The position numbers were made by a program, and so were the translations under genes. From positions 1-53,068 of the IMG/VR virus record IMGVR_UViG_3300037762_000317: DNA of 53,068 bases; one strand, given 5' to 3'. This document shows, in pieces, positions 10,633-46,609 of the stretch. The stretch's first letter is position 1. Each line of letters begins with the position of its first letter. The notes under the pieces were generated by a model. The model worked only from the letters and a program-made list of their open reading frames with translations. It was not told the origin of the DNA and searched no databases. The stretch is from a virus. Its lineage: Duplodnaviria; Caudoviricetes.

Positions 10633-10854
10633 TCACTCGAGTCCCTCGCGGCGGCGCGCCTCGGCCAACAGGTTGTCGAATTCGGCTGGGTACCGGTCAC
10701 GTAATGCGGCGAGCGCGGCGCTGTAGGCGCGGCTGTCGACCCTTGCAGCGTTCGGGTCGCGTTTCCTCCCGGATCCGCGTGGCTGGCCGCGCGGCGGCCG
10801 TTTCATCGGTTTCATCGGCGCGGCGGGTTCAGTCTTGTCGACCCATGTGCTCAC
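10633..10854 (-). CDS. hypothetical basic protein
   Basis: GTG start overlaps the excisionase stop; ...ALAALRDRYPAEFDNLLAEARRREGL. Confidence 0.6.
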   Translation of the reverse strand: MSTWVDKTEPAAPMKPMKRPPRGQPRGSGRKRDPNAARVDSRAYSAALAALRDRYPAEFDNLLAEARRREGLE

Positions 10855-11126
10855 GCGGCACCCGCTTTGAGGAGCCATTGTTCGAGGGCGTGGCGGGGGA
10901 TGCGGATGGCGCGGCCGTGGCGGAAGTTCCCGATTTCCCCGGACCGGCATTTGGCGCGGACGGAGTCCTCGGACAACGTCAACTCGGCGGCGGCCTCGGC
11001 GACGGTCAGCATCCCGCCGTCGAGCATCGGGGTGCGGTTCTCAGCTTCGGCGGTGAGCAGTCGGGTGAGGCGGTCGATGGCGGCTTCGAGCCGCTCGACC
11101 GCCAGCTCGTTGGCGGCGGCGGTCAC
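10851..11126 (-). CDS. xis: excisionase-family HTH protein
   Basis: MLTVAEAAAELTLSEDSVRAKCRSGEIGNFRHGRAIRIPRHALEQWL. Confidence 0.8.
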   Translation of the reverse strand: MTAAANELAVERLEAAIDRLTRLLTAEAENRTPMLDGGMLTVAEAAAELTLSEDSVRAKCRSGEIGNFRHGRAIRIPRHALEQWLLKAGAA

Positions 11127-11365
11127 GACACACCCGCCTCGTCGTATTCGCGGTAATCAAGATGCGGGATTCCGGCGATGACCATCTCGCCGCAGTAGCC
11201 GCAGTGGTACTGCCCGAGCGGCGCGCCGACGAGCTGCTGCGGTTCCCACGGCCATGGGCACGGCTCACCCTCAGACGTGAGCGGACCGGTGATGTCGTCA
11301 CGGGGCAGCACGAGGTCAACCGCGTCCTTCGGCTCGATCTCGGCCCACGAACGAACTGCAGTCAT
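11123..11365 (-). CDS. hypothetical zinc-ribbon protein
   Basis: CPWPWEP...YHCGYCGEMV. Confidence 0.65.
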   Translation of the reverse strand: MTAVRSWAEIEPKDAVDLVLPRDDITGPLTSEGEPCPWPWEPQQLVGAPLGQYHCGYCGEMVIAGIPHLDYREYDEAGVS

Positions 11366-11610
11366 CAGTGGCCGCCGTGTTCGCTTGGGCACACGTGCCG
11401 CCCGGTGGTGTGGTCGTGCATGCCGTGCGTGGTCGCGTCACACGTGGGCTGGCTGGTGGGGTCTTCGCCGACCGCGTCGACGGGCACCGTGTCAGCCGGA
11501 TGCTGTTCGACAGGTTGGTCGGCGGGTTGGGCGCATCCGGTGAGGAGGGTGAGGGTGGTTGCGGCGGCGACGACGAAACGCTTCACGATGCGTCCTGTTC
11601 TGTGAGTCAT
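11365..11610 (-). CDS. putative lipoprotein
   Basis: signal peptide ending in lipobox LTG-C; ATGA-coupled to the Tas-like ORF. Confidence 0.65.
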   Translation of the reverse strand: MTHRTGRIVKRFVVAAATTLTLLTGCAQPADQPVEQHPADTVPVDAVGEDPTSQPTCDATTHGMHDHTTGRHVCPSEHGGH

Positions 11611-13085
11611 GCGGCACCCCCAGCGCGGCGAGGATGGGACTCGGATGGTCTATGGCTGGGGGTGCCGCCTCCCGACGAATGGGCAGTGGGCGTCGCGGCG
11701 TCACTGGTCGGGAGTTCTTCGCCCCCACCAGCGGAAGCCCGCTGGGTGCCGAGCGCCACATGGCCGGTGGGGGCGTCTCCCGGCGCCCCTTGTATGGGTG
11801 CCGCTACTTCGCTGGCCGGGAGGGTTCTTCGTGCTTCGCGCCACAGGTCGAGCAGGATGCGTTTGGACACGAGGCGCATGGCGCGGGCGTGCTTGTGTCC
11901 GTCGCTCAGCGGCGACCCGACCGCGGCAGGGTCACCCTTCGGGCCGCAGCGCTTGCACTCGACTGGGTGGACGGCGTCGGCGTACTTCGCGCGCCCGTCG
12001 TCGTAGACGTCGCGGTAGGGCGACCGCCGCTTGGTCGACGGCGGGCCGATCTGCTTGATGCAGGACTCGGCGACGACGTAGACGCGGGACTTGGCTTCGG
12101 TCGACCAATTCGCCCGCTGGCCGCGTGCGCGGGTCGGCGCCACCCCGACGCAAGCTATGTGGTCGTCGGTCTCCTGGTGGTCGGGGTGGCGTCCGTCATC
12201 CCCATGGTTCCCCTGGGCATCGATCCGAACGTGGGGGATGACGTGTAACCCGCAGTAGGCCCATAGCTTCGCGGGGTTCAGGCGGGTGGCGGGGTCGCCG
12301 ATCGCGGCGATAAGCCGTGCGGCCTGTTTCTCGCCGACGCCGACGTTGTCCTTCACCCACTGCGCGAGATAATGGCGGCGCATCGCCCGTTTGAGCATGA
12401 GCGTGGCGCCGTGCTCCATCGCCTGGATCTGCCCGAGCATGTCCCGCATCGCGCCGACTTCCGGGAGCCCTTCGGGGAGGCCCTTGCCGTGGGTGACGCC
12501 GTCGACCTCCCACGTGGTGGTCAGTGAGCGGATGCGGTTTTCGTGGGCGATGCGGACCTGTTCGATGTCGCCGAGCAGGTCGGCGTGGACGAGCAGCAGC
12601 GCGTCCTCCACCCCCCTGGCGCTCCCGATCTGGGCGTCGTGCGCGTCTTGGCCTTCGGGGGATGGAGGACCGCCACCGACGGAACTTGAATGGTCGTCGC
12701 TCGGTCGATGGTCGGTGGCGGCCACGACACATGCTTGGTCGTCGCGGATGGAATGGTGACCGCCACCGACGTCCGCACGTTGGGCATCCAGCAAGGTCTG
12801 GTCGGTGGCGGCCACGCTCGTTGTTTGGGCATCGACAGCTCGCTGGTGACCGCCACCAACGATGCGCCATTGGGCATCGCGCGCAGTGTGGTCGGTGGCG
12901 GCCACGGGCGGGATTTGGGTGCCGCATGTGCAATGGTGGCCGCCATCGACGCAGGGGCTTTGGGCGTCGGTGCCAGGATGGTCGATGGCGGCCACGAAAG
13001 GAACATGGGTCTCGTCTGTTGCTTGGTGACCGCCACGACCGTCCACCGACTGGATATCGCGGTCATGATGGATCGTGGCGGTCAT
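11607..13085 (-). CDS. tasA: TasA-like Nop/IS110-Tnp-domain RNA-binding protein with no nuclease domain; folded core about 12611-11830, remainder is translated guide array
   Basis: coiled coil DIEQVRIAHENRIRSL, then GVGEKQAARLIAAIGDP...LWAYCGLHV...RGQRANWS...VAESCIK...SPYRDVYD...GHKHARAMRLVSKRILLDLW; no RuvC DEDD or HNH domain; embedded dual-spacer array. Confidence 0.8.
   Translation of the reverse strand: MTATIHHDRDIQSVDGRGGHQATDETHVPFVAAIDHPGTDAQSPCVDGGHHCTCGTQIPPVAATDHTARDAQWRIVGGGHQRAVDAQTTSVAATDQTLLDAQRADVGGGHHSIRDDQACVVAATDHRPSDDHSSSVGGGPPSPEGQDAHDAQIGSARGVEDALLLVHADLLGDIEQVRIAHENRIRSLTTTWEVDGVTHGKGLPEGLPEVGAMRDMLGQIQAMEHGATLMLKRAMRRHYLAQWVKDNVGVGEKQAARLIAAIGDPATRLNPAKLWAYCGLHVIPHVRIDAQGNHGDDGRHPDHQETDDHIACVGVAPTRARGQRANWSTEAKSRVYVVAESCIKQIGPPSTKRRSPYRDVYDDGRAKYADAVHPVECKRCGPKGDPAAVGSPLSDGHKHARAMRLVSKRILLDLWREARRTLPASEVAAPIQGAPGDAPTGHVALGTQRASAGGGEELPTSDAATPTAHSSGGGTPSHRPSESHPRRAGGAA
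11611..11822 (-). ncRNA. TIGR-like array block 3: 4 stem-loop units in the 3' end of the ORF
   Basis: four CCA-N9-CGNNNCCCA-N9-CG units, each closed by its own 8-14-bp inverted repeat (11611-11668, 11669-11714, 11720-11775, 11777-11822). Confidence 0.85.
12138..12243 (-). ncRNA. TIGR-like array block 2: 2 stem-loop units inserted in frame inside the Nop domain
   Basis: CGTCATCCCCCA-cgttcggat-CGATGCCCA-ggggaacca-TGGGGATGACG and CGCCACCCCGACCA-ccaggagac-CGACGACCA-catagcttg-CGTCGGGGTGGCG. Confidence 0.8.
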
Positions 13086-13086
13086 G
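12604..13086 (-). ncRNA. TIGR-like array block 1: 10 dual-spacer units (9 at an exact 45-bp period)
   Basis: 18-nt edge repeats ending CCA, 9-nt spacer A, 9-nt loop repeat CGATGCCCA-like, 9-nt spacer B; all spacers different. Confidence 0.88.
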
Positions 13087-13549
13087 AGCGCATCACATCC
13101 TCAACAAGGCCGTCGTCGAGATCGCCGACCGTCACCGCGCCCGCCTTCGCCATCTCACCGCGAAGCCGGTCGTAGCGGTCAGCGAACGTAGAGTTCCGAG
13201 CCGCCCGCTCGCGGTACTGGTCAGCGATGAATTCAACCTCCGCAGCGGTGCAGTCGCCGAGGCGCTTCCACTGCGGCACCCACACCTGCCAGACCTTCGG
13301 GTTCGCCACATGTGGACGTGCCCGCGCGTACTTCGACTCGCCCTGCGCTGGCGCCGGTGCCACTGAGGTCCGCTGGCGTATATCAGCGAGCCGATGGCGT
13401 GCGAGCCGATGGCGTGCCGCCTCACGGACCGCCCACACGATCAACTCGTCGCGTTGGTCGTCGTTGATATTCGGCAGGACCTTCTCGGAGATCTCATCGG
13501 GTCCGACCGCCCCATCGGCGATCGCGTCATCGATCAGCTCATTAAGCAT
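13082..13549 (-). CDS. hypothetical protein directly upstream of and coupled to tasA (candidate accessory factor)
   Basis: ...WKRLGDCTAAEVEFIADQY...YDRLRGEM...VTVGDL; stop overlaps the ATG of the Tas-like ORF. Confidence 0.7.
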   Translation of the reverse strand: MLNELIDDAIADGAVGPDEISEKVLPNINDDQRDELIVWAVREAARHRLARHRLADIRQRTSVAPAPAQGESKYARARPHVANPKVWQVWVPQWKRLGDCTAAEVEFIADQYRERAARNSTFADRYDRLRGEMAKAGAVTVGDLDDGLVEDVMRS

Positions 13550-13818
13550 TACGACAGCACCTCGTAGGCCGCTTCGAGCGTGTCGGGCGGCACGGACCGA
13601 AAGCCTGGGATGTCGTCGGCGAGCACGGCGGCCCAGCCGGGGAACACATGCTCTTCGCCTTCGGCGGTATGAATGACGAGGGTGCGGCGGGTGTCGCCGA
13701 TGGTGGGCGTGAAGTCATAGGCGGCCATGCCGAGGGCGACCAGTTCGCGGAGCGCTTCACGGGTGTCGTCCCAGGTGACTGCGTGGGCTAGCAGCGGCTT
13801 GTGGCGGACGCGCATCAC
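13549..13818 (-). CDS. conserved small phage protein
   Basis: RHKPLLAHAVTW...LVIHTAEG...GFRSVPPDTLEAAYE resembles the widespread KKPV..TLEG..GE.YP..F..TYE phage family. Confidence 0.65.
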   Translation of the reverse strand: MMRVRHKPLLAHAVTWDDTREALRELVALGMAAYDFTPTIGDTRRTLVIHTAEGEEHVFPGWAAVLADDIPGFRSVPPDTLEAAYEVLS

Positions 13819-14072
13819 TGAGCCACCGCTTCGGCGTCAGGGTCGGTGAGCGCTTCCATGACCGCGTCGTCGCGGACGCCCAACGCGACGGCGATCTCGT
13901 GGCCGACGTCCCACGTCATCGGACGCGACTGGTTGATGACCAGCGACAGGGTGCTGCGGGAGATGTTCGTCTCGTCCGCGAGCTGCGTGATCGTCATGCC
14001 GCGCTCGCGGAGGAACTGGCGGATCGGCCCTTCGAGCGGCCGGTAGCGGGTTCTGTGTCGGCGGTCGTTCAT
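13815..14072 (-). CDS. Cro-like XRE HTH regulator
   Basis: LRERGMTITQLADETNISRSTLSLVINQSR; divergent from the repressor; first gene of the early arm. Confidence 0.85.
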   Translation of the reverse strand: MNDRRHRTRYRPLEGPIRQFLRERGMTITQLADETNISRSTLSLVINQSRPMTWDVGHEIAVALGVRDDAVMEALTDPDAEAVAQ

Positions 14073-14078
14073 GCGGTC

Positions 14079-14107
14079 AACGTAGCGCCGATCGCAGCGC
14101 AACGCAA
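14079..14107 (-). promoter_or_regulatory. early lytic promoter (leaderless)
   Basis: TTGCGT-N17-TACGTT then 6 nt to the cro ATG. Confidence 0.65.
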
Positions 14108-14172
14108 CACATCATCTAACGCTCAGAGCGGGTTACCCTGCGGTATCGGCTTGCCGCTGCGGAAAACGGGGG

Positions 14173-14221
14173 GTTGCGCGCATCGGAAACGTTGCGTACT
14201 GTTGCGCAGATGACCCATACT
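14173..14221 (+). promoter_or_regulatory. repressor promoter/operators
   Basis: TTGCGC-N17-TACTGT and three GTTGCG repeats (14173, 14191, 14201). Confidence 0.5.
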
Positions 14222-14231
14222 GGCAGGCAAG

Positions 14232-14570
14232 ATGCGACCACACCTCGGAGATCTGATCCGCGCCATGCGCGAAGATCGGGGTCTCAGCATGCGCGAGCTG
14301 GCACGCCGTTCCAACGTCGACATCTCGACGTTGTCGCGGTTGGAGTCACACACCCACGCGACGATGACACGGGAGAACACCTCACGAGTCGCGCAGGCCC
14401 TCGGAACGACCGTCGAGGAGGTCGAACGTCGGCTCGGTCACAACAACGACCAACCGGCCCCACGTCGCTGGCCGAGCGTGGAAGAGGTCATCGAGCGGGA
14501 CCGGGAGCTCACTGCGGTTCAGAAGGCCGCTCTGGTCGCTCACTATCGGTCGTACGTCCACAGGCGATGA
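14232..14570 (+). CDS. immunity repressor (XRE HTH)
   Basis: LGDLIRAMREDRGLSMRELARRSNVDISTLSRLE; divergent from cro, upstream of the integrase. Confidence 0.85.
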   Translation: MRPHLGDLIRAMREDRGLSMRELARRSNVDISTLSRLESHTHATMTRENTSRVAQALGTTVEEVERRLGHNNDQPAPRRWPSVEEVIERDRELTAVQKAALVAHYRSYVHRR

Positions 14571-15496: not shown

Positions 15497-15769
15497 GTGA
15501 GCGGTCATGCCCCAATGACGGCCGGCGAACTGCGACAGGTGCTTGCGAACTATCCCGACTCCACCCGCATCGTGCTGGCGAAGGACGCTGAGGGCAACGG
15601 ATATAGCCCACTGTATGAGGTCGTCGTGGCGATGTATGCCGCTGAGACGACGTGGTCGGGCGAGTACTTCCTGCGCGAGCGGGAGCGCCTTGCGCAGGAG
15701 GATCCGGACGACTGGGATCCTGCGCCGGATGATGCGGTTGAGGCCCTGTTTCTGTGGCCGGTCAACTGA
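15497..15769 (+). CDS. conserved actinophage protein
   Basis: MTAGELRQVLANYP...VLAKDAEGNGYSPL...LFLWPVN pattern. Confidence 0.7.
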   Translation: MSGHAPMTAGELRQVLANYPDSTRIVLAKDAEGNGYSPLYEVVVAMYAAETTWSGEYFLRERERLAQEDPDDWDPAPDDAVEALFLWPVN

Positions 15770-15770
15770 C

Positions 15771-16955
15771 GTGAGTGTGCATAAGTATGTCGACGCGGGG
15801 GGCCATGCGCGGTGGCGGGTCAACTACGAGCTGCCACCCCACTCGGAAACTGGCAAGCGGCGGAAGTCCACGAAACGCGGGTTCCCGACGAAGCGTGCCG
15901 CGAAGGTGTGGGAGGACGGGTTGCGTGGGCGCATCGCGCAGGGCGACATCCCGCCGGTGCGTGAGCGACGGCAGACGGTCGGCGGCTATCTGCGCGGCTG
16001 GTATGCGGGCGTCGGCGGGAAAGAGACGTGGCGTGCGCATTGCCGCGACATGTGCGAGTGGTACGTGCTCCCGCATCTCGGGGGCTTCCCGCTCGACCAG
16101 CTCGAGCCGGAGCATGTCGACGCGTGTTACCGGCTGCTCGAGCGCGGCGGGTGGCGGCGCAGGACAGCGAAAGGCAAGCTGCGGGGCGTGGGGCCGCTGG
16201 CGCCGAAGACGGTCCGCAACGTCCACATCGTCCTGCACCGCGCCCTCGCTGTAGCGGTCGAACGGAAGCGTCTGCGCCGCAATGTGGCGAGTCTGGCGCA
16301 CCCGCCGACGCAGAAGGCCGCCAAGTCGCGGAACGCCGAGCGGGTGTGGACCCCCGAGCAGCTGCAGGCGTGGCTGGCGCACATCGCCGGCGACCGGCTA
16401 TACGGGGTGTGGTATCTCGCGATGACGACGGGGATGCGCCGCGGCGAGCTCGCCGGCCTGCACTGGGTCGACGTCGACCTTGAGTCTGGGACTGTCAGGG
16501 TGCGGTGGGAGCTGACCGTCGTGGACAACCGTCCGACGTGGGTGGACGGCGCCAAGACCACGGCGGGGGAGCGGACCGTCGACCTCGACGCGCGGACTGT
16601 GGAGGTTCTAAGGACCCATCACGCCCGTTTGTCGCAAGAAAAGCTGGCGTGCGGCCCCGCGTACCACGATGAGAACCTGGTGGTGTGTTGGGAAGACGGG
16701 ACGCTGATGCATCCGGACCGGCTGTTACGCGCCCTGTATCGGCACGCGAAGGCGCTCGATCTGCCGAGGATCAACGTGCATGGCCTACGGCATTCCTACG
16801 CGACGATCGCGCTCGACAGCGGGGAGGATCACAAGGTGGTGTCGGAGCGGTTGGGGCACGCGTCGGCGGCGACGACGATGGACGTCTACCGGCATGTGTC
16901 CGACGCGCAGCATCGAGCCGCCGCCGAACGCATAGCGAAAAGGATCACCGGATGA
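15771..16955 (+). CDS. int: tyrosine integrase
   Basis: arm-binding N-terminus (TGKRRKSTKRGFPTKRAA); catalytic TGMRRGE, KT, HGLRHS, LGH, DVYRH. Confidence 0.95.
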   Translation: MSVHKYVDAGGHARWRVNYELPPHSETGKRRKSTKRGFPTKRAAKVWEDGLRGRIAQGDIPPVRERRQTVGGYLRGWYAGVGGKETWRAHCRDMCEWYVLPHLGGFPLDQLEPEHVDACYRLLERGGWRRRTAKGKLRGVGPLAPKTVRNVHIVLHRALAVAVERKRLRRNVASLAHPPTQKAAKSRNAERVWTPEQLQAWLAHIAGDRLYGVWYLAMTTGMRRGELAGLHWVDVDLESGTVRVRWELTVVDNRPTWVDGAKTTAGERTVDLDARTVEVLRTHHARLSQEKLACGPAYHDENLVVCWEDGTLMHPDRLLRALYRHAKALDLPRINVHGLRHSYATIALDSGEDHKVVSERLGHASAATTMDVYRHVSDAQHRAAAERIAKRITG

Positions 16956-37402: not shown

Positions 37403-40008
37403 TAGCGGCCTCCGCCCATCCGCAACCTGGTGTCCTCGCGGTCCTCGCGCCGGTCGATGATCACATTCACCTTCTTGTCGATGACCTCGTCGTCGCCGAT
37501 GAATACCTGCACGGTGATGCCGCCAGCGGGGATGATCGACTCGCCACGATGCACCCTGGCGAGCCCGCCGCGGGACACGTACGGAGTGCCCTCCGCGAAC
37601 GACCCGACCCGGTCGAGCATCGCCGTGCTCGCCGTCCGCGCCATCGCCCGGCCCAACCGGTCCATGAAACTGTCGCCGCCGATCCGGTCGATGATCCGGT
37701 CGATCGCCTTGCGGATCATCGCGGCGAAATCGAACGCGCTGCCCGACGCGTGCCACTTGCGGTTGAACCGCGAATCGAACGCGCCGTCAGCGGGCGGCCC
37801 CCACGCGCTCGTGCCGTGCCCCCCGCCGGCCTCAGCATTCGTCCCGTCGACCGTCGCCGCCATATGCCCAGGGTTGCCGACATACGACCCGATGTTGAAG
37901 TTCCCCCGACGCGGCGCCAGGCCGGCGACGACGCCGTTGCCCGCTGAAATCGAGGAGGTCGTGAACCGGCGGCGGAAGAACGGCGGCTTGCCCTCCCACA
38001 CATTAAGCAGCGCGCTGACCCAACCGGAGCAGTCGAAGTTCGGGCCGACGCCGCCCCACCGGTAGCTGTTGCCGTCGTACTGGCGGGCGAAGTTGGCGAC
38101 CGCGATCGGGCCGCCCGCGGCGTACTTCGGCGCCCACACCCACCCGCCGTCCGCGTAGCGGCGCGCCGGGTCCCCGCCGGTCGGCGGCTCGCGCCCCCAG
38201 CGATTCAGCTTCTCCAGCGTGGCGACGCCGATCCGGTCGACCGCCTTACGGGACAGCACGAACTCGCCGGGCGTCAACCACGCCCGGACCGTGTCGCCCA
38301 TCCCCTGGCCGCCGACCTTGCCGCCTTCGGCGAACTCCTGATCCCGCGTGCTGCGAGCACCCGTCGTGTTCCCACCCGACGTCCGCCCCAACGGCGACAG
38401 CGTCGGCCCGCCGAACGGCTTCGACACGCGGTTCCACAGGCTGATCAGCGGGTTGATCACGTTCCTGCGGATCCTGTCGAGCCCCGCGATCATCCGCGTC
38501 CGAATCGTGGCCATCCCGCTGCTCGACGCCGCCGCCATGTCCGGCCACACGCCACTCCAAACCCGCTTCAAGGCGCCGCCGAACGTGCGCCAGTCGCCGC
38601 GCTGCGCGGCCTGGAACGCGTCGCCGATGCCGGTCATCCGGTTGAGGTTCCGCTGCTCGGTCTTCGTGTTCTCGGCCCAGATGTCCCGCCAGATGATCCC
38701 GAACTTCTCACCCCACGTCAGCGTCTTGTTGCTGACGAGCCGGTGAAAATCGGCGACGTCTCCCACGCCGTCGTCGAGCTGCTGGTTCAGGATGCGGCGG
38801 TAGCGGCGCCAGGCGTCGCTGCCCTCGTCGACGCCCTCCGGCACTCGCACGCCGATGAACTTCGTGACCGCGTCCGCGTGGTCGGGGATGTGCTTCTTGC
38901 GGCCCACGTCGAGGGTGGCGAAGAAATCCTCGAACGCCGGGATCAGATCCTCCTCGATGACCGGGATGACAGTGCCGCCGACATACTCGGTCAGCTTCAT
39001 CAGCCCCTTGCGGCGCCACGTCTCGATCTTGGTCTGCGCGTTGTCATACGCCTTGTTCCCGACCTTGACCGTGTCGGTCAGCTCCTTCTGACCCTCGACG
39101 ACGTCCTTCAGGATCGGGACAGCGTTCTTGCCGAGGTCCTCGAACGGCGTGCCCATCAACGCCACACCAGCGCGGGCGCGCTCCGCTGGGTCCTCGATCC
39201 CTAGGATCCCCTCGATGATCCGCTTGGTCATCTTCCCAGCGGTCTCGCCGCCCTTCGCGAACGCCGCCTCGACCTCGCCGACGTTCAACCCGATGGCCTT
39301 CAACCCCTCCTTCGTCAGCTCCGAACCGTCGAGCGTGCGGATCCCCAGTTCCTTGACCGCGTCGCCGACCTTGTCGATCGCGTACTGGTTCGTCGCCCAC
39401 TTGCTGGTCAACGCCCCCAGAATGTTCGAGCCGTCCAACCCGACCTGCGCGAAATGGTTCGAGTACTCGTCCAACGCTTGAATGACCTCGTCGGTCGGCC
39501 CCTTCGTCTTCTGCAACGCCGTCGCGACCTGATCCATCGCGGTCTTCGCGTCCGGCGCCAACCCGTTTGTCAGCAGCTGCTGCGCGACCCGCACGATCTC
39601 GTTGAAATCCTGGTCCCACACGTCCGCCGTGGTCGCCGCCGACTCCGTGACCTTCTTCAACGCCTTGTCGGTCAGGTCCGGGAACGCCTTCATCGTCGCC
39701 GAATAGAAGCCCTGGACCTCCTCAAGCGACTCGCCCCACGCGTTGGAGTACGTGTCGCCCGCGAGCTTGCCGAGCTTGCCGGCCTCCCGCGACGTCAACC
39801 CCAGGCGGGCCTGCAGCTTGTCAACGCCGGCGTCGATGTTCAGCGCCTGGCTGATCTGCTCGCCGACCTTAGCGGCGACCCACGCGGCGCCGAACCCGGC
39901 GGCGGCCTTCGCGCCGAGGCCCTTCATCTCGTCGGCCCAGTTGTCGGCGCCCTTCTTGAGGTCGTCAAGGCCCTCCTCGACGAACTTGACCTTGATCGGG
40001 CGGGCCAC
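37402..40008 (-). CDS. tape measure protein with C-terminal NlpC/P60-like domain
   Basis: helical TMP core (DKVGDAVKELGIR, GTPFEDLG); AWLTPGEFVL; YRWGGVGPNFDCSG...GHMA. Confidence 0.9.
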   Translation of the reverse strand: MARPIKVKFVEEGLDDLKKGADNWADEMKGLGAKAAAGFGAAWVAAKVGEQISQALNIDAGVDKLQARLGLTSREAGKLGKLAGDTYSNAWGESLEEVQGFYSATMKAFPDLTDKALKKVTESAATTADVWDQDFNEIVRVAQQLLTNGLAPDAKTAMDQVATALQKTKGPTDEVIQALDEYSNHFAQVGLDGSNILGALTSKWATNQYAIDKVGDAVKELGIRTLDGSELTKEGLKAIGLNVGEVEAAFAKGGETAGKMTKRIIEGILGIEDPAERARAGVALMGTPFEDLGKNAVPILKDVVEGQKELTDTVKVGNKAYDNAQTKIETWRRKGLMKLTEYVGGTVIPVIEEDLIPAFEDFFATLDVGRKKHIPDHADAVTKFIGVRVPEGVDEGSDAWRRYRRILNQQLDDGVGDVADFHRLVSNKTLTWGEKFGIIWRDIWAENTKTEQRNLNRMTGIGDAFQAAQRGDWRTFGGALKRVWSGVWPDMAAASSSGMATIRTRMIAGLDRIRRNVINPLISLWNRVSKPFGGPTLSPLGRTSGGNTTGARSTRDQEFAEGGKVGGQGMGDTVRAWLTPGEFVLSRKAVDRIGVATLEKLNRWGREPPTGGDPARRYADGGWVWAPKYAAGGPIAVANFARQYDGNSYRWGGVGPNFDCSGWVSALLNVWEGKPPFFRRRFTTSSISAGNGVVAGLAPRRGNFNIGSYVGNPGHMAATVDGTNAEAGGGHGTSAWGPPADGAFDSRFNRKWHASGSAFDFAAMIRKAIDRIIDRIGGDSFMDRLGRAMARTASTAMLDRVGSFAEGTPYVSRGGLARVHRGESIIPAGGITVQVFIGDDEVIDKKVNVIIDRREDREDTRLRMGGGR

Positions 40009-40254
40009 TCAGCTGCCTTTCGTCCGCCGCGCCACCCGGTGCCTGCGACGCTGGTCGAACCGGGTGAGGAACGCGGTCAGCTCTTGGGGGTCGACGTCGA
40101 CCGGGCGAATGTCCTCCTCCGGTTCCTGCGACGCTGCGGCCGTCTGCTCAAGCTGGTCGAGGTCTTCGAGGAGCCCCTCGACCTCAGACAGCCACATGTG
40201 TTCCTCGAGCTCCCACGGCGCGTATCCGTAGACGCGGCGGATCAGCGGCAGCAT
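40009..40254 (-). CDS. tail assembly chaperone, downstream (T) frame
   Basis: lies in the -1 frame relative to the upstream chaperone, directly before the TMP gene. Confidence 0.6.
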   Translation of the reverse strand: MLPLIRRVYGYAPWELEEHMWLSEVEGLLEDLDQLEQTAAASQEPEEDIRPVDVDPQELTAFLTRFDQRRRHRVARRTKGS

Positions 40255-40271
40255 CGGCCGCAGCCGCCGCC

Positions 40272-40649
40272 TCAGGCTTCCGGGGCGGCGCCGTCCTCGT
40301 CGGCGGGCGGTTTGTCGAGCACGTCGCGGACGCGGACCTCCGCGGCGACGTCGACATAGCGGGTCTTGGGCTCGACGCGGCGCAACGCCAGCCACAGCAT
40401 CCCCGCGAACCCGGGCAGCTTCCCGTCGCCGACGCTGCGCCACAGATCCAACCCGGTGGTCTGCTCGAACCTCAGGTAGTCCAACGCGGTGAAGTCACGC
40501 AGGTCGACGCGGACCGTCCGGGACTTCCAGCGGATCCACCACACCGGCTGCGAATCGACATCCTCATCGGCAGGTTCGGGGGCGGCGCCGTTGAGCTGCG
40601 TCCCATCGGCGTCGATGTCGACGTCGGGGTAGTCCATCGTGTCGCTCAA
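40272..40649 (-). CDS. tail assembly chaperone (G)
   Basis: position; ends GCC CCG GAA GCC TGA with an overlapping open -1 frame. Confidence 0.65.
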   Translation of the reverse strand: MSDTMDYPDVDIDADGTQLNGAAPEPADEDVDSQPVWWIRWKSRTVRVDLRDFTALDYLRFEQTTGLDLWRSVGDGKLPGFAGMLWLALRRVEPKTRYVDVAAEVRVRDVLDKPPADEDGAAPEA

Positions 40650-40658
40650 GATCGGCTC

Positions 40659-41096
40659 CTATCCGAGGCGTGCCGTGGCGACGGCCTGATCGATGACGGT
40701 GTCCATGTCGCGGATGACGCGACGGCGGGCGCGACGCACAGCCGGGAAGAAGTAGCGGCCCTCGCGGATGAACGGCCGCGCCTCGGTGTCGCGAGGCCGC
40801 CGGCCGCCGTGGTCCAGCCACGGCACGTACGACCAGCGGTCGTCCTGGTGGCGGGACACGTAGGGGATGATCCCGTCGGCGCCCGAGCGGATCGCCGACG
40901 TGGCGTGCCCGCCCTTCGTGGGGCCGCGCGGCATCGGCCGGCGCGCGTCGTCGCGGACCGTCCTGGCCAGATCCCGCATCTTCTTGCGGGTGCGTTTCTC
41001 CAGATCCCGGTTGAATTCCCGCAGACCCCGCTGGATCTCGCGGGTGTCGACCTGCATGCGCAGCGGCGCACGCGACGCGAACGTGGCCATCACCAC
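40659..41096 (-). CDS. HK97 gp10-like tail completion protein
   Basis: basic; MPRGPTKGG...YVPWLDHGG...EGRYFFPA. Confidence 0.7.
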   Translation of the reverse strand: MVMATFASRAPLRMQVDTREIQRGLREFNRDLEKRTRKKMRDLARTVRDDARRPMPRGPTKGGHATSAIRSGADGIIPYVSRHQDDRWSYVPWLDHGGRRPRDTEARPFIREGRYFFPAVRRARRRVIRDMDTVIDQAVATARLG

Positions 41097-42094
41097 ACCG
41101 TCGTGTCGCGGGACATGTACTCGATCTTTATCGGGTTGTTCGTGCCGTCGTAGAACCCGGTGAACGGGTGCGTCATCTCGACCGGGCCGACACCGCCGAC
41201 CGCAGGGGTTTCCCCGTCGAACCGGATCTCGGGGATCGTGATCTCGACCTCCTCGAAGAACGACCCAGAGATCACCGACCCAGTGAAGTTCAGGATCAGG
41301 TTGACACCGGTGTCGGCCTCGAACAGGTCATGCAAGGTGGCGGTGAGGAACCGCGCGGTCAACGTGCCGCCGGCGGACCGGAAGTCGTTCAGCTCCGGCT
41401 CGCCCTTCAACCCCGTCGATCCCAGGAAGTACGCTTCGACGTCCAACGGGTTCGTGCCCGTCACCTCGGTCGACAGGACCTGCGCGACCGGCGTCCCCGC
41501 GATCGTGATCGCGCCGTCCTGGAACGTGAACACCCCACGGACGGGTTCGCCGAGCCCCTCGATCACGGCCGTCGACCCGCCCGACACCATGTTCTCCGCG
41601 TCGACCGACACGGTCAACCTGGGCACCTCACCAACCGCGACCGACAGCGACCATTGGGGGATCTTGCAGCCCTCCAGTACGAAGCCCTTGACGACGGTGC
41701 CGGCGCCGTCGCGGATTACCTTCTGGATGGTGATGCCCTTGTTCGTGAGCGTGCCGGTCTGGTGGGTCTGCAACCACGCCGGCGTCGCACCCTGCTGCAC
41801 GACCGTCGACGTGCCGCCGAGCGCGTGGTTGAACCAGATCCCCATCCCCTGTTTGCCGAGCGCCATGGGGATGTCACCGTTGGACGTGCGCGAGCTGATC
41901 CGCCGGTCGGCGCCGTGACGGAACGTCACCGGCCCGCCCGTGATCGAGTCGGCGGTGATGATGTTCTTCTGCAACCGCAGCGTCTCGCCGGCGAGGAACG
42001 GGAACCGGCGGGTCACCGGCACCGGCGTGCCCCACGTCGTTTCGACACCGGCCGCCAGCAGCGTCCGCAACCCTTGACCGACGGCCATGCTCAC
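41090..42094 (-). CDS. major tail (tube) protein
   Basis: GVETTWGTPV...GCKI...TPAVGG tail-tube pattern. Confidence 0.8.
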   Translation of the reverse strand: MSMAVGQGLRTLLAAGVETTWGTPVPVTRRFPFLAGETLRLQKNIITADSITGGPVTFRHGADRRISSRTSNGDIPMALGKQGMGIWFNHALGGTSTVVQQGATPAWLQTHQTGTLTNKGITIQKVIRDGAGTVVKGFVLEGCKIPQWSLSVAVGEVPRLTVSVDAENMVSGGSTAVIEGLGEPVRGVFTFQDGAITIAGTPVAQVLSTEVTGTNPLDVEAYFLGSTGLKGEPELNDFRSAGGTLTARFLTATLHDLFEADTGVNLILNFTGSVISGSFFEEVEITIPEIRFDGETPAVGGVGPVEMTHPFTGFYDGTNNPIKIEYMSRDTTVW

Positions 42095-42121
42095 AGCTCC
42101 CAGTTAGACGCAGATCGTTGG

Positions 42122-42149
42122 CGGCATCCTACTGACACGCTGCTGACAT
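42122..42149 (-). promoter_or_regulatory. putative late promoter, copy 2
   Basis: ATGTCAGCAGCGTGTCAGTAGGATGCCG upstream of the major tail gene. Confidence 0.65.
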
Positions 42150-42174
42150 CCGACGGCACCGATCCCCACCTCTA

Positions 42175-42203
42175 TTGACACCACGGGTCCACGGTGTCAT
42201 ATT
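42175..42203 (+). promoter_or_regulatory. sigma70-type promoter with inverted-repeat operator
   Basis: TTGACA-N17-CATATT; TGACACC-N10-GGTGTCA. Confidence 0.7.
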
Positions 42204-42281
42204 GGGTGGTGACCGACAAACAAGCGGCCCCGGCGGAGCGGGCATCACTCCCCGGAGCCATGAACCACCAGACAGGACCTG

Positions 42282-42962
42282 ATGATCATGACCACCCTAC
42301 AAACCCAACCCGAACAGACACCCAAACGGCGCAGCTGGTTCCTCCGTCACCCGCTGTGGACCTTCGTTCTCGTCCTCGCCGCCATCGTCGTCGTCTTCGC
42401 CGGTTCTGCTGACCCCGCAGCGGACACCACGCCTGAGCCGGCGGAGCCCGCAGCCGAACCCGCCGAACCGGTCGATGAGCCCGAGCCGGATACCGCCGCC
42501 GCAGTCGAAGAGGCCGAGGACAATTTTGAGCAGGCGCTTGAAGAAGCCGAGGATGCCGTTGAGAGAAACAAGTTCGTCAAGGCTGACTATGAGGATCTCA
42601 CGGCCCGCGAGTTCGCCAAGGTCGTCCGCGATCCCGACGCCCACGTAGGTGAGAAGATGCTGCTGTTCGGCGAGGTCTTCCAGTTCGACTCGATGACCGG
42701 CCCTGACCAATTCCTCGCGTGGGTCGACGGCGACCGCGACACCGAAGGTGAGGAGTACGGCTTCGTGTCGTATGACCACACCGCTTTCCTCACCGATGAG
42801 CAGTTGGAAAGCCAGCTCGGCGACGTCGTGGAGGGCGATCACTTCGCCGCCTACGCGACGGTGGTCGGGTCGTTCGACTATGACACGCAGATCGGCGGGT
42901 CGACCACGGCGGCTGAGTTCACGGTCGAGAAGATCAAGGTCCTACCCGCGCTGGAGGGGTGA
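42282..42962 (+). CDS. membrane-anchored extracellular protein (moron; OB-fold-like C-terminus)
   Basis: TM helix, Pro/Glu linker, VVRDPDAHVGE...GEVFQFD...YDTQIGGSTT. Confidence 0.75.
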   Translation: MIMTTLQTQPEQTPKRRSWFLRHPLWTFVLVLAAIVVVFAGSADPAADTTPEPAEPAAEPAEPVDEPEPDTAAAVEEAEDNFEQALEEAEDAVERNKFVKADYEDLTAREFAKVVRDPDAHVGEKMLLFGEVFQFDSMTGPDQFLAWVDGDRDTEGEEYGFVSYDHTAFLTDEQLESQLGDVVEGDHFAAYATVVGSFDYDTQIGGSTTAAEFTVEKIKVLPALEG

Positions 42963-42965
42963 CGC

Positions 42966-43118
42966 ATGGGCGACGATGACCGCGTGATCCTGTCCGTCCG
43001 ACTCCCCCCCGACCTGCACCGCGCCGCCAAACGCAAAATGGTCGACGACGACCAGACGTTCCAAGCGATCTTCGAGGCTGCCGTGCAGACCTACGTCAAC
43101 GGCGACACCAAACCCTGA
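42966..43118 (+). CDS. ribbon-helix-helix protein (not in the ORF track)
   Basis: MGDDDRVILSVRLPPDLHRAAKRKMVDDDQTFQAIFEAAVQTYV; RBS GGAGG. Confidence 0.75.
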   Translation: MGDDDRVILSVRLPPDLHRAAKRKMVDDDQTFQAIFEAAVQTYVNGDTKP

Positions 43119-43119
43119 C

Positions 43120-43614
43120 TCACATGATCGACGTGCAGCGGACGATGCAGGGAATCAGCATCTGATAGCCCTCGATCTCCGCCGGGTTCACACCGTATGG
43201 GTCGGCGTCGGGGTCGCCTCGCACCGCGGGGATGACCCCGGTGCCGCCCTCGACCGCTGCGACCAACGCGAAACCGTCGCCGAGCGCGCCGCTCAAGTTG
43301 CTGTTGTCACGCACGATCTCGGTCAACGTCGAGAACATGCCGCACGCCGCCGTATGAATCGTCTCGACCTCCTCATACTTCGCGCCCGGCGAGAAGTACT
43401 TGATGAGCACGTCGATGTCGTAGGTCTCCTCGAGCGCAGGCGAGTCGCGGCCGAGTTCTGCGAAGTCGATCTGCGCGTCGCGCCAACCGAGGATCGACAC
43501 GATCTTGGGGTCCTCGAACCGCGGCGGCGTGAACGTCACCTGCACATCGCTCGCGTAGGCTGCGACCGCCAGCGTCTTCAACGCGGACGTGGCCGCCGCG
43601 ACGGTCGTGGCCAC
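43120..43614 (-). CDS. putative tail terminator
   Basis: position and EETYDIDVLI motif. Confidence 0.55.
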   Translation of the reverse strand: MATTVAAATSALKTLAVAAYASDVQVTFTPPRFEDPKIVSILGWRDAQIDFAELGRDSPALEETYDIDVLIKYFSPGAKYEEVETIHTAACGMFSTLTEIVRDNSNLSGALGDGFALVAAVEGGTGVIPAVRGDPDADPYGVNPAEIEGYQMLIPCIVRCTSIM

Positions 43615-43617
43615 CGA

Positions 43618-43875
43618 TCAGCTCTCGTTGTCCTCGTCGACGGGCTGCTCGACCTCGCCGGCCGAATCATCCTCCGACGCAGACTCCGACTCGGATTCGA
43701 AGGCGGCGCGGGCCGCGGCCTTCTGCTCCAATGTGTCCGCCGCCGCGAACCGCTCCGGCCGCGCCCGCACCAACGGGTGGTTCGCCGGATACTCGTCGCC
43801 CTGCTTGACGTGGACCCGCTCGCCGCGGTGCTCGCCGTAGAACCCGTCAGTGCACATGTAAACCGTCGCAGCCAC
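43618..43875 (-). CDS. small virion-associated protein
   Basis: HPLVRARPERF...LEQKAA; RBS AAAGGA. Confidence 0.6.
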   Translation of the reverse strand: MAATVYMCTDGFYGEHRGERVHVKQGDEYPANHPLVRARPERFAAADTLEQKAAARAAFESESESASEDDSAGEVEQPVDEDNES

Positions 43876-43886
43876 TGGGCTTCCTT

Positions 43887-44711
43887 TCAGAACGAGATAT
43901 CACCGATGCGGCGATTCAACACCGCGTCGACGTCGGGGATGCCGGTGCCGCGTCCGGTGCCGGCGTAGGAGTGACGAGCGGTGCCGTATTGATTCGAGAT
44001 GATCATCTGCCGCGACGCGCCGCCCGCCCGCTTTACTTGCACGTGATCGGCGATGGCGATGATTCCGGCGTCGTACAGGACACGGTCGGGGTAGTCGTGG
44101 CCGTGCTCGTAGCTGATCTGCAGCATCCCGGGGCCGACGGTCGGGTTGACGCCGTAGGGGGTGATGATTTCGCCGGACCGCAATGGCGTCCACGTCGACG
44201 TGTCGACCGCGGCGCCGTCGAGCGTGGCGGACAAGATCTGGCGGACGTGGGGGCGGTCGAGCACCAACGGGTCGGTCGCGACCGTGCGGTAGTGGGATTG
44301 GAGGCGGTAGCTCGGGACGAACGATTGGGTGCAGTAGTTGTCGACGAGATCGTGCCACCACCAGCGGCCGTCGGCCAGGGCCGCGTCGGGGAACTTGGTC
44401 TCGTCGGCGAGACCCGAGTTGCGCAGCGTGTTGAGATCGACGTAGAACCCGCCGACGATCGGGTGGTAGGTGGTCACCGTCCCATGCGTCGCGGACACCC
44501 AGGCGGCAGTGAGGACGTCGACCTGGGCGGTGTGGGTGGTGGTGAGCACGAACGTGCGGGGATTCGTGCTCGACCCCGCCGCGGCGGTGGACGCGACGAG
44601 TACTATGCCGTCCGCGCGGGAGACCATGACGGTCACGCTGCCGGGGTCGGCCGGTGAGTCAGCGTCGAACCACTGCGCGCTGATGGTCGCCGGTGTGCCT
44701 TTGAGGATCAT
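43887..44711 (-). CDS. head-to-tail adaptor
   Basis: VDNYCTQSFVP...ISYEHG...TGIPDVDAVLNR. Confidence 0.7.
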   Translation of the reverse strand: MILKGTPATISAQWFDADSPADPGSVTVMVSRADGIVLVASTAAAGSSTNPRTFVLTTTHTAQVDVLTAAWVSATHGTVTTYHPIVGGFYVDLNTLRNSGLADETKFPDAALADGRWWWHDLVDNYCTQSFVPSYRLQSHYRTVATDPLVLDRPHVRQILSATLDGAAVDTSTWTPLRSGEIITPYGVNPTVGPGMLQISYEHGHDYPDRVLYDAGIIAIADHVQVKRAGGASRQMIISNQYGTARHSYAGTGRGTGIPDVDAVLNRRIGDISF

Positions 44712-46609
44712 CGCGGCGCTGGCCGACAGGCAAGGTAGTCCGCGGCGGCGGGTTCGGACAGTTCCCCGTCGGGATGCCACCACGTCGGCACGGTATGCAC
44801 GACCTCCCATGTGTAGTCGAGGTCGGCGAGGAGCTGCTCGAGGTCGCCGCGGGTGTAGTAGCCGTAGACGTCGTGGCATTCGATGAGCAGCACCGGCCGG
44901 TGTTCGGCGAGCAGGCCGGACATGCCGCGCAGCGCGTGGAGGTCGGCGCCTTCGACGTCGAGCTTGACCAGATCGATCCGGTCGACTGCCAACACGCTGT
45001 CCAGGGATCGTGCTGGGACTACTGTCTGCCCGGGTGCGTCTGGTGGGACGGTACGGGTCGAGCCGCCTTCCTTCTTACGGTTCGGGTCGTCGAGTGCGAG
45101 TGTCGTGTCTTCGTCCCACGCCGCGACTTCGTGGACTGTCACGTTGGTGATGTCGTTGATCGCGAGGTTCCGGCGCAGCGTCGCAGCGGTGTCAGGGTTG
45201 GCCTCAACGGCGTGAACATGGCTGGCCTTGCCGGCGAGGCGGAGGGTCCAGTGGCCGACGTGCGCGCCGACGTCGAGCAGCACGCCGCCGTCGGGCAGTA
45301 GTTCGTCGATGATCGGCGTGAGTATCGATTCGTGGCTGGAGAAGCCAAGCTGGTCGTTGTAGCCGGGTCCGCGGTCGAGCCACAGCAACCCGTCGGCCTC
45401 CCTCACCGAAGGCTTCCGTTCGGGCGGCGGGTCGGTCCGTCGCATCTCCAACGCGACCTCGAGCCGCTCGAGCGCGGGCTTCCAGAACTCGACGAGCACT
45501 CGGTCGGCGTCGTAGTCCTGCGCGAACGCCCACGCCCGCGACCGCATCCCCTCATCCCGCGCCGACTCGTAGGCCTGTTCATAGGCGTCGACGATCCCGG
45601 AGATCAACGGCCGCCGCGCCCACGCGCTTTGGCTGTCGTGCCAGAGGACTTCGCCGGGGACCTTCCACCCGGCGCCGCACAGCTCCGGCATCGCCGTCGT
45701 GTCCGTCACCACCACTGGCGTGCCGCACGCCTGCGCCTCCACGATCGGGATGCCGAACCCCTCACCCCACGACGTGTTCGTCAACACGTCAGCGGAACGG
45801 TAGACATCCGCGACCACCGTCGGGGGCAGCCCGACCTTGTAGGCGTACTGGTCGGTGAAGTGGTACGACCCGTCGGGGAAGTCCGACAGCAGATGGCGGA
45901 TGTCGACCCCATACGGCGACGTCACATCCGTGTGCAACACGAGCACGGCGTCGGAGTGGCGTCGGCGGAGCTCGCCGAACGCGACGATCTGCTCGTAGAA
46001 CGCCTTCCGGGACCCGTCCTTGCCGACGTTCGCCGCGACCATCGCGACCACGAACGCGTCCGTCGGGAGGCCGGCGCGTTCGCGGGCCTCCGCCTTGTCG
46101 CCGGGCCGGAAGATGTTCGTGTCGATCCCGTGCGGGACGTACAGCGGGTCCATCCCCGCGTCCCGCAACAGCTTCTCGCCAAACCGCGACATCGCGATCG
46201 GCGCCGCCCCGGTCCGTTCGAACCAGCCCGCCACCGGCGGCGGGACCTCCTCGTGGTCGACTGGCACCCACGCCGCGACGTTCATCTCGCGGAGCAGCGG
46301 CTGCTCGAACGTCCACACGTCGCCGAGCGTGATGATCACGCCTTTGTCGGCGACGTCGCGGAACGAATGGCCCGGCCCGCCGCCGAAATGGTCCATCGCG
46401 TGCGGGATGATGATGTCGCTGCCATATGACTTGGCGTAGGCGGGGTAGCAGGTGATCCCCTGCCACGACATCTTGAACCCCTGGACCCCGTAGTACGCGG
46501 AGATCGCGACGTCGTGACCCAACGCCTTGATTCGGGGAGTGAACGTGGCGGTCTGCTGGCCGTAACCCGAGCCAACCGCAGGATGCACCGAGTGCCACAG
46601 CACCTTCAT
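44708..46609 (-). CDS. GT-B (family 4-like) glycosyltransferase fused to an FkbM-family methyltransferase
   Basis: SGYG, VPHGID, EGFGIPIVEAQACGTPVV; then LLDVGAHVG, VEAN, LVKLDVEGAD, LLIECH. Confidence 0.92.
   Translation of the reverse strand: MKVLWHSVHPAVGSGYGQQTATFTPRIKALGHDVAISAYYGVQGFKMSWQGITCYPAYAKSYGSDIIIPHAMDHFGGGPGHSFRDVADKGVIITLGDVWTFEQPLLREMNVAAWVPVDHEEVPPPVAGWFERTGAAPIAMSRFGEKLLRDAGMDPLYVPHGIDTNIFRPGDKAEARERAGLPTDAFVVAMVAANVGKDGSRKAFYEQIVAFGELRRRHSDAVLVLHTDVTSPYGVDIRHLLSDFPDGSYHFTDQYAYKVGLPPTVVADVYRSADVLTNTSWGEGFGIPIVEAQACGTPVVVTDTTAMPELCGAGWKVPGEVLWHDSQSAWARRPLISGIVDAYEQAYESARDEGMRSRAWAFAQDYDADRVLVEFWKPALERLEVALEMRRTDPPPERKPSVREADGLLWLDRGPGYNDQLGFSSHESILTPIIDELLPDGGVLLDVGAHVGHWTLRLAGKASHVHAVEANPDTAATLRRNLAINDITNVTVHEVAAWDEDTTLALDDPNRKKEGGSTRTVPPDAPGQTVVPARSLDSVLAVDRIDLVKLDVEGADLHALRGMSGLLAEHRPVLLIECHDVYGYYTRGDLEQLLADLDYTWEVVHTVPTWWHPDGELSEPAAADYLACRPAPR

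Follow-up and report, generated by a model that had tools for sequence, protein, structure and literature searches.

Introduction

The TIGR-Tas systems defined by Faure et al. in 2025 occur in phages and in candidate phyla radiation (CPR) bacteria, and their guide arrays are of either a dual-repeat or a tandem stem-loop type (PMC12045711). Here, we describe a locus at 11607-13086 on the minus strand of IMGVR_UViG_3300037762_000317, a complete IMG/VR virus record of 53,068 bp (the window) with a G+C content of 64-70%. The locus consists of a gene, tasA, and 16 guide RNA (tigRNA) units, and it very probably constitutes a complete stem-loop TIGR-TasA system of an uncultivated temperate actinophage, which would carry its guides within the tasA open reading frame (ORF) and act as an RNA-guided DNA binder.

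Several described systems are close to this one. PlTasA, from a Peromyscus leucopus gut contig, is a solo coiled-coil and Nop protein with stem-loop units (PMC12045711); its 13 units are arranged in sub-arrays and processed to single stem-loop RNAs, and its dimer binds both DNA strands (PMC12045711; 10.64898/2026.08.11.744272). The structure of a stem-loop TasA dimer on DNA has been determined by cryogenic electron microscopy by Guan et al. (10.64898/2026.08.11.744272). The text of the 2026 preprint by Xu et al. (10.64898/2026.09.09.750476) reports 2,559 stem-loop arrays, with CCA and CG among the search motifs, and describes in-frame arrays located within tas or at its 5′ or 3′ end, as well as arrays with overlapping stems. 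It presents TasA as a reversible, guide-dependent transcriptional repressor, shows that the wedge loop of the Bifidobacterium longum protein (BlTasA) overlaps two tigRNA coding regions, and names natural targets, guide maturation, and translation-processing coupling as open questions.

As judged from this published description rather than from sequence similarity, the present locus resembles BlTasA in being nuclease-less, in its actinobacterial lineage, and in having units within the coding sequence. BlTasA has units upstream of and inside the coding sequence, two of them on the wedge loop; here, the equivalent insertion at residues 285-316, a disordered segment that is probably the wedge loop, contains units 11 and 12. 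Unlike in BlTasA, all 16 units are intragenic, four of them in the 3′ tail, with zero intergenic space, nine units share their arms at a 45-nt period, and the boundary CUU described for BlTasA is not seen. The sub-arrays of PlTasA are split by a gap of ~450 nt, called intergenic in the text of PMC12045711, whereas here the units are embedded in frame; the two proteins also differ in host lineage and GC content. Similarly to TaTasR (9MTY) and SpTasH (9W04 and related entries), the locus combines a Nop-type domain and a coiled coil with dual 9-nt spacers and a 9-nt inter-spacer stretch (box D, 4 nt, box C). Those two systems, however, carry RuvC or HNH and have 36-nt direct edge/loop repeat units, while the present one has no nuclease and has long closing stems.

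A CG box D and an intragenic array position are thus already published. The local peculiarities are the intragenic placement of all 16 units, the nine shared inverted arms at 45 nt, the absence of CUU, and a set of one histidine, two cysteines, and another histidine (H-C-C-H) in the protein. The known picture of the TIGR-Tas family is unchanged by this locus, which is a clear further example of a known system. What it adds is a compact stem-loop TIGR-TasA example, fully intragenic, from a temperate actinophage with a complete 53-kb genome, where it belongs to the early leftward operon and lies beside the immunity switch.

Guide Units

Each unit follows the order box C (CCA), spacer A of 9 nt, box D (CG), a 4-nt loop, box C, spacer B of 9 nt, and box D, that is, CCA-N9-CG-N4-CCA-N9-CG. 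In 11607-13086 there are 16 such units on the minus strand, 14 of them exact and two with one box letter changed. The gene and the 32-nt unit cores, all on the minus strand, are as follows:

11607-13085 (−): tasA ORF, 492 aa; PHROG 4285 and Pfam PF02371 matches
13040-13071 (−): unit 1 core; stem 13 bp; tasA start codon within the 5′ arm
12995-13026 (−): unit 2 core; stem 12 bp
12950-12981 (−): unit 3 core; stem 16 bp
12905-12936 (−): unit 4 core; stem 14 bp
12860-12891 (−): unit 5 core; stem 14 bp
12815-12846 (−): unit 6 core; stem 16 bp
12770-12801 (−): unit 7 core; first box D is GG, not CG (from alignment and fold)
12725-12756 (−): unit 8 core; stem 14 bp
12680-12711 (−): unit 9 core; stem 14 bp; ends the 45-nt shared-arm block
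12620-12651 (−): unit 10 core; own 14-bp stem in the fold, with an internal loop; 3′ arm enters the first codons of the folded core
12203-12234 (−): unit 11 core; stem ~10 bp; second box D is TG; in the disordered insertion, aa 285-316
12149-12180 (−): unit 12 core; stem 13 bp; in the disordered insertion, aa 285-316
11784-11815 (−): unit 13 core; stem 7 bp; in the disordered C-terminal tail
11732-11763 (−): unit 14 core; stem 12 bp
11676-11707 (−): unit 15 core; stem 7 bp; weakest fold, z −0.79
11624-11655 (−): unit 16 core; stem 15 bp; 3′ arm holds the stop codon of tasA together with the following gene's start codon

The exact pattern has 19 matches in the whole window, 14 of which are those on the minus strand within 11624-13071, as compared to an expectation of 0.57 and a largest value of 2 in 100 dinucleotide shuffles. 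A preliminary description of this DNA, made from the sequence alone, had claimed 16 units with unique 9-nt spacers, and the present analysis confirms it: the 32 spacers are all distinct and all exactly 9 nt long, and their mean pairwise mismatch of 6.6 out of 9 is about that of random 9-mers. In the ungapped 16-unit alignment, the A/B spacer pairs listed there are correct for all 16 units (columns 20-28 and 38-46), and the GG variant and the TG-ending unit that it mentioned are both seen, GG replacing CG after spacer A in unit 7 and TG being the second box D in unit 11. The box columns of this alignment are 99% conserved, versus 40% for the spacer columns.

The region coincides with a single minus-strand ORF of 492 codons (11607-13085). 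The preliminary description had treated the array and the protein as separate, the latter being placed at 12611-11830; all 16 units in fact lie in frame inside the tasA ORF.

Unit 1 deviates from the others in its spacers. The 9 nt spanning the tasA start codon, located 19 nt upstream, recur in unit 1 as spacer A (13060-13087, minus strand), and its spacer B matches the repeated arm at 8 of 9 nt, and for these reasons it looks like a degenerate terminal unit. The hairpin of this unit also gives a weak microRNA-precursor match in Rfam, on both strands of 13023-13088 (27 and 24 bits, where the gathering score is 90), which is not a real family match; nothing in Rfam reaches that score.

Closing Stems and Array Layout

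Each of the 16 units is closed by inverted flanks of 7-16 bp, a feature absent from the preliminary description, which had assigned the array to the edge/loop repeat type. The long closing stems and inverted arms identify it instead as the published stem-loop type. Direct conserved edge/loop repeats with 36-nt units, as in a dual-repeat array, were not found, the period being 45 nt with inverted arms of 13 nt. The preliminary description had also suggested that CG may mark a distinct actinophage variant, but CG is already a standard box motif of TIGRFinder. When the stem-loop criteria of that program were re-implemented without stem indels (box C CCA, CGA, CTA, or CAA; box D TG or CG; paired intervals no further than 15 bp from each other; a minimum stem of 5 bp), the result was 13 valid units whose stems measure 7-16 bp, all of these units being CCA/CG, on the minus strand, and in the tasA ORF, together with one overlapping spurious pair. 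Other box combinations give at most 3 matches each on either strand, and the remaining three units pass if one box variant or an internal loop is allowed.

The stems are maintained in spite of sequence change. Over the 16 units, 89.6% of the cells of a 12-bp closing helix are paired, versus 56.6% for column shuffles (0 of 500 reach the observed value) and 29-62% when the partner is slid, and all 12 of its pairs show changes on both sides. In the 5′ block many of these compensatory changes are not independent events, because one repeat alternates there with its own inverse; the internal and 3′ units carry mutually unrelated stem sequences. Folded alone, every unit gives a terminal stem that encloses the 32-nt core, with z values from −0.8 to −6.5.

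Ten units are found in the 5′ 465 nt of the gene, two in the mid-gene disordered insertion, and four in the 3′ tail. Units 1-9 (13071 down to 12711) follow one another at a 45-nt period with 13 nt between the cores. This 13-nt segment alternates between one sequence and its reverse complement, giving stems of 12-16 bp, and therefore the 3′ arm of one unit is the 5′ arm of the next. Units 13-16 (11815-11655) have separate arms.

TasA Protein

The only Pfam match of the tasA product is PF02371, the IS110-family C-terminal domain (residues 248-284, E 1.9e-4), and no RuvC, HNH, or N-terminal DEDD catalytic domain is detected by Pfam. PHROG 4285, which is labelled "transposase", matches residues 154-422 with E 1.3e-74. 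A database search with residues 155-420 gave 1,353 proteins at E ≤ 0.001 among 3,372 candidates, the closest of the matches listed being 57-60% identical and including proteins of Streptomyces and Kitasatospora. The alignment of the query with 49 of the 120 matches listed (50 homologues) has a conserved core with 53 invariant residues, whereas both terminal extensions, as well as one internal insertion, vary greatly.

Both the profile and the fold place the protein among the Tas proteins. The family profile matches the solved structures of TasR (9MTY, E 8.4e-21) and TasH (E 9.9e-10), and in a Foldseek search of the PDB ranks 1-10 are all TasR or TasH, with E from 2.6e-7 to 2.7e-5. After these come IS621 (E 1.5e-2) and ISCro4 (E about 2e-2), and, unlike what a close kinship with the box C/D proteins would give, Nop5, Nop56/58, and Prp31 are just weak matches with E 2.4 or worse. 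The structural comparison that the preliminary description had proposed thus supports its claim of a nuclease-less Nop/IS110-type protein.

In the AlphaFold2 model, the predicted local distance difference test score (pLDDT) exceeds 90 for about residues 150-285 and 320-425, and it is below 50 for residues 6-143, 289-314, and 441-492, which are the stretches encoded by units 1-10, 11-12, and 13-16, respectively. The folded core accordingly consists of two parts:

12235-12638 (−): TasA core part 1, about aa 150-284; hairpin of two coiled-coil helices (156-189 and 208-237) and first C-terminal helices; aligns to TasR 9MTY residues 141-215
11826-12137 (−): TasA core part 2, about aa 317-420; remainder of the Nop-type RNA-binding domain; aligns to TasR residues 218-298 and TasH residues 189-284

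The homodimer model has a score of 0.74, versus 0.00 for the best of three controls; among solved proteins, 20 of 30 same-chain pairs and 1 of 23 single chains attain that mark. At least 80% of the contacts agree between the runs, the pLDDT of the partner is at least 78, and the predicted interface lies on both coiled-coil helices, at residues 158-188 and 209-234. Since Tas dimers have already been solved, this result shows likeness and may come from the predictor's memory of them. With this qualification, the coiled-coil dimerisation scaffold is present in the predicted structure.

Four residues, H373, C377, C380, and H397 (11895-11969, minus strand), are invariant in the 50 homologues; the insertion that contains them is modelled with short strands. 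This insertion does not align to TasH, which has no cysteines at the aligned positions, and it sets the present clade apart from TasH. On the basis of the sequence pattern, the four residues may form a zinc-binding knuckle specific to the actinobacterial clade. A 402-residue homologue (P0059), 65% identical over 41% of the query, has the Pfam HNH domains PF01844 and PF14279, so that a TasH-like nuclease form exists near this TasA clade.

The resemblance to IS110 elements has also to be considered. Like the IS110/IS621 bridge-RNA recombinases, TasA has the RNA-binding C-terminal domain (PF02371, the part over which the IS621 fold match quoted above extends), and the "transposase" label of PHROG 4285 is repeated in public phage annotations, so the locus might be thought to be an IS110-family transposase with a bridge-RNA-like non-coding RNA, i.e., a mobile element inserted in the phage. 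However, the DEDD/RuvC-like domain is undetected by Pfam, the N-terminal 143 residues being disordered array sequence instead, the Tas structures match far better than IS621, the bridge-RNA architecture and the element ends are absent, and ATGA overlaps pack the gene into an operon. The probability that we attach to a mobile element is next to negligible.

Related Loci

The protein family and the units also occur together in 91 related actinobacterial or actinophage loci. Among 64 IMG/VR loci collected by alignment search, 356 units lie on the tas strand versus 44 on the opposite one; at least one unit is found in 62 loci and at least three in 54. The tas-strand units have the boxes CCA/CG/CCA/CG in 282 of 356 cases and a 4-nt loop in 288 of 356. 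In 27 prokaryote loci, nearly all from Actinomycetota (two metagenome bins bear other phylum labels), the numbers are 144 units versus 20 on the other strand, with at least three units in 24 of the 27. The genera include Kitasatospora, Streptomyces, Actinomadura, Parafrankia, Mycobacterium, Gordonia, Microbacterium, Nocardia, and Tsukamurella.

Isolated phages also carry homologues of the same family with same-strand CCA-N9-CG units, namely Mycobacterium phages Bob3 and Omega, with 3 units at gp72 and 8 at gp21, respectively, and Gordonia phage BENtherdunthat, with 11 at gp059, several of these 11 being inside the ORF. Unlike in the window, the units of Bob3, which are located upstream of gp72, and those of Omega are intergenic, with separate arms and a spacing of about 57-66 nt, and the identity of these proteins to the window protein is ~37-43%. 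The public labels of the three homologues are "helix-turn-helix DNA binding domain protein", "transposase", and "hypothetical protein", and the tigRNA units are unannotated. The family is present, under the labels "transposase" or "HTH protein" (HTH, helix-turn-helix), in well-studied and genetically tractable mycobacteriophages (cluster A, Omega) and Gordonia phages, and the open questions named in the preprint could be addressed in Mycobacterium smegmatis with existing phages. Apart from the paper of Faure et al., which cites a mycobacteriophage review, a literature search of main texts found none discussing TIGR-Tas in mycobacteriophages.

A single-protein scan of IMG/VR for close relatives of the window phage yielded 2 loci at 42-43% identity, and zero matches resulted when 25 kb of the window were compared to isolated phages by megablast. 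Since the phage has no close relative in the searched collections, spacer variation was examined on cluster A mycobacteriophages. In eleven cluster A loci the stems are kept at corresponding positions while the spacer pairs differ, some being common to subsets. This is the behavior expected of hypervariable spacers, as opposed to segments conserved at the protein level, which the preliminary description had named as a refuting result; it pertains to the relatives. In the IMG/VR records of these phages, at about 2170-2560 of each locus, the pattern looks like cassette-like spacer turnover.

The 45-nt period of the window array has no counterpart in this collection. For the 248 distances between adjacent units that do not exceed 80 nt, the 91 loci show a mode of 57-63 nt, with three values under 50 nt and not one of 45 nt. 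Two of the short-spacing loci were inspected by eye and have separate arms in the resolved adjacencies, the 41-nt spacing of one of them not being among these.

A small RNA has been reported from the 63-64 region of Mycobacterium phage D29 (PMC5712189) and was considered as a tigRNA lead. It was dropped, as the fetched stretch (D29 39500-46000) contains zero annotated tasA-type genes and zero tigRNA units. At the place where relatives have a tasA-type gene, D29 shows a gap of 614 bp following gene 70. D29 is known for a deletion of the repressor region, which the loss of the gene may accompany.

Genome Context

The neighborhood of tasA, as assigned from gene order and PHROG searches, is the following:

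15543-16955 (+): tyrosine integrase (PHROG)
14232-14570 (+): HTH repressor-like gene, divergent from the cro-like gene (PHROG)
13815-14102 (−): cro-like HTH gene, opens the leftward operon (PHROG)
13549-13818 (−) and 13082-13549 (−): two small genes between the cro-like gene and tasA (gene order)
10851-11126: excisionase-like gene (PHROG)

The order claimed in the preliminary description, with tasA as the fourth gene after the cro-like gene and two small genes, agrees with the gene coordinates and PHROG matches. At both ends tasA shares an ATGA with its neighbor, its ATG overlapping the stop codon of the gene upstream and its TGA the ATG of the gene downstream, so that it is flanked by zero intergenic DNA on both sides. 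We infer that tasA is transcribed, and hence expressed, from a promoter of the operon that starts at the cro-like gene. A scan of 11000-14400 for sigma-70 promoters and terminators gave zero minus-strand sites, which is uninformative for an actinobacterial host. Such a host is pointed to by the terminase relatives, which are confined to actinophages (~32% identity), by the distribution of the tasA family, and by the G+C content.

Proposed Mechanism and Targets

The mechanism that we propose from the homology to characterized TasAs is that the units would be cut out of the tasA transcript and that one unit would be loaded per TasA dimer. Spacers A and B would then base-pair with an 18-bp DNA site, each on a different strand, and once bound the complex would stand in the way of transcription or of some other DNA transaction, with no cleavage. 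The role would presumably be to silence host or competitor DNA early in infection.

Several results weigh against this picture, the first of them coming from the target searches. Composite 18-bp sites, revcomp(A)+B or B+revcomp(A) with gaps of 0-2, were constructed for all 16 units, that of unit 11 being one base off register, and both orders were searched because the target geometry is not settled in the text of the papers. The preliminary description had proposed to look for such 18-mers in this genome; zero composite sites are found in it at 0 or 1 mismatch. The two self matches with 2 mismatches are both within the array, the one at 13050 being explained by the degeneracy of unit 1, and the 8 matches with 3 mismatches compare to 5.2 ± 2.3 in 30 shuffled-spacer controls. 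Likewise, the 451 distinct spacer pairs (537 units) have zero exact matches in 583 kb of related loci, with 0-1 in ten re-paired controls. This lack of targets in the phage itself and in related loci fits host or competitor DNA as the target but does not show it.

The other points come from the array. In the nine-unit block, the full stems of neighbors are mutually exclusive because the arms are common to both, and the minimum-energy fold of the whole block forms just part of the unit stems at once. The CUU processing-boundary motif is not found: CTT occurs in 1 of the 32 flanks of 20 nt, and that one is within the spacer of a neighbor. In addition, the G+C content at third codon positions (GC3) is non-coding-like in the N-terminal array block (0.68) and the C-terminal tail (0.67), as compared to 0.90 in core part 1, 0.885 in core part 2, and 0.82-0.92 in other genes of the same phage, and the 5′ array block is open in other reading frames as well.

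We have also considered that the system is the same TIGR-TasA system but that its natural job is not transcriptional silencing: its RNA-guided bending or binding of DNA would then help in integration or excision, in partition, in controlling replication, or in excluding related phages from superinfection. The gene adjoins a lysogeny module with the integrase, repressor-like, cro-like, and excisionase-like genes, the Discussion of Faure et al. raises integrase-aid and ParB-linked roles for Tas (PMC12045711), and the searches of the own genome and related loci are empty. On the other hand, the functions shown in the text of the Xu et al. preprint for nuclease-less Tas are sequence-specific DNA binding and reversible repression only (10.64898/2026.09.09.750476), and zero spacer pairs match the phage's own DNA, such as attP or the origin region. 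We regard another job as a possibility to be kept in mind, though not the one to be expected.

A second alternative would be that the system is decaying or inactive, with an intact protein and an array that is a relic without functional guides. The degenerate look of unit 1, the variant box D in two units, the weak fold of unit 15 (z −0.79), and the failure to find targets in the own genome and related loci could be taken in this sense. However, the boxes are perfect in 14 of the 16 units and all 32 spacers are exactly 9 nt, the stems are kept by compensatory change, and 53 core residues are invariant across the 50 homologues. A relic is for these reasons very unlikely.

Coding and RNA Constraints on the Array

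The array is in frame, its period of 45 nt equals 15 codons, and the codon phase is common to 14 of the 16 units. It could hence be read as a tandem peptide repeat, with a period of 15 or 30 residues, of a disordered tail without any RNA function, the more so as gene callers stretch the ORFs of relatives over such segments. The conservation is, however, at the nucleotide level, with nearly invariant boxes and about random spacers, and the stem pairing is kept through two-sided changes. Moreover, GC3 falls from 0.89-0.90 in the core to 0.67-0.68 in the array segments, the same units are intergenic in phages Bob3 and Omega, and the strand bias in the IMG/VR loci is 356 versus 44. A peptide repeat is thus extremely improbable.

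As the other frames are open and GC3 is low, the open tas frame alone does not show translation of the array segments. In 89 related loci, the tas frame is open upstream over a median of 201 bp, versus 126 and 54 bp in the other frames, and over at least 300 bp in 35 loci versus 13 and 16; 187 of the 265 upstream units lie inside the open tas frame. These figures are approximate, since the starts of the tblastn matches vary. Taken by its composition and conservation pattern, the sequence of the array-bearing segments (155 N-terminal and about 70 C-terminal residues) is shaped at the RNA level.

The position of units 11 and 12 has a further consequence. As they lie mid-coding sequence, a transcript processed there cannot encode full-length TasA. 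Making guides must accordingly come at the expense of making TasA, and vice versa, a plausible feedback.

The nine-unit block, which resembles a dual-repeat array with an edge repeat of alternating orientation, could also represent a hybrid of stem-loop and dual-repeat arrays. In one outcome, each transcript would yield alternate guides only, as an either-or choice; in the other, the arms would be cut mid-way as in dual-repeat arrays, and the block would be an evolutionary intermediate between the two array types. Because the end stems hold the start codons of both genes, guide maturation and the translation of TasA and of the downstream gene would be physically coupled, and the arrangement would be autoregulatory. 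We consider this proposal doubtful as it stands. The shared-arm block is nevertheless a simple test case for the maturation of stem-loop guides.

Other Open Reading Frames

The ORF directly downstream of tasA (11365-11610, minus strand; 81 aa), the start codon of which sits within the 3′ arm of tigRNA unit 16, has zero PHROG matches. It has a signal-peptide-like start and an L-L-T-G-C lipobox-like motif, and may, as far as these motifs go, encode a lipoprotein. In the structural-gene region, a 633-aa ORF (44708-46609, minus strand) has a glycosyltransferase match at residues 1-375 and a methyltransferase match at residues 435-581.

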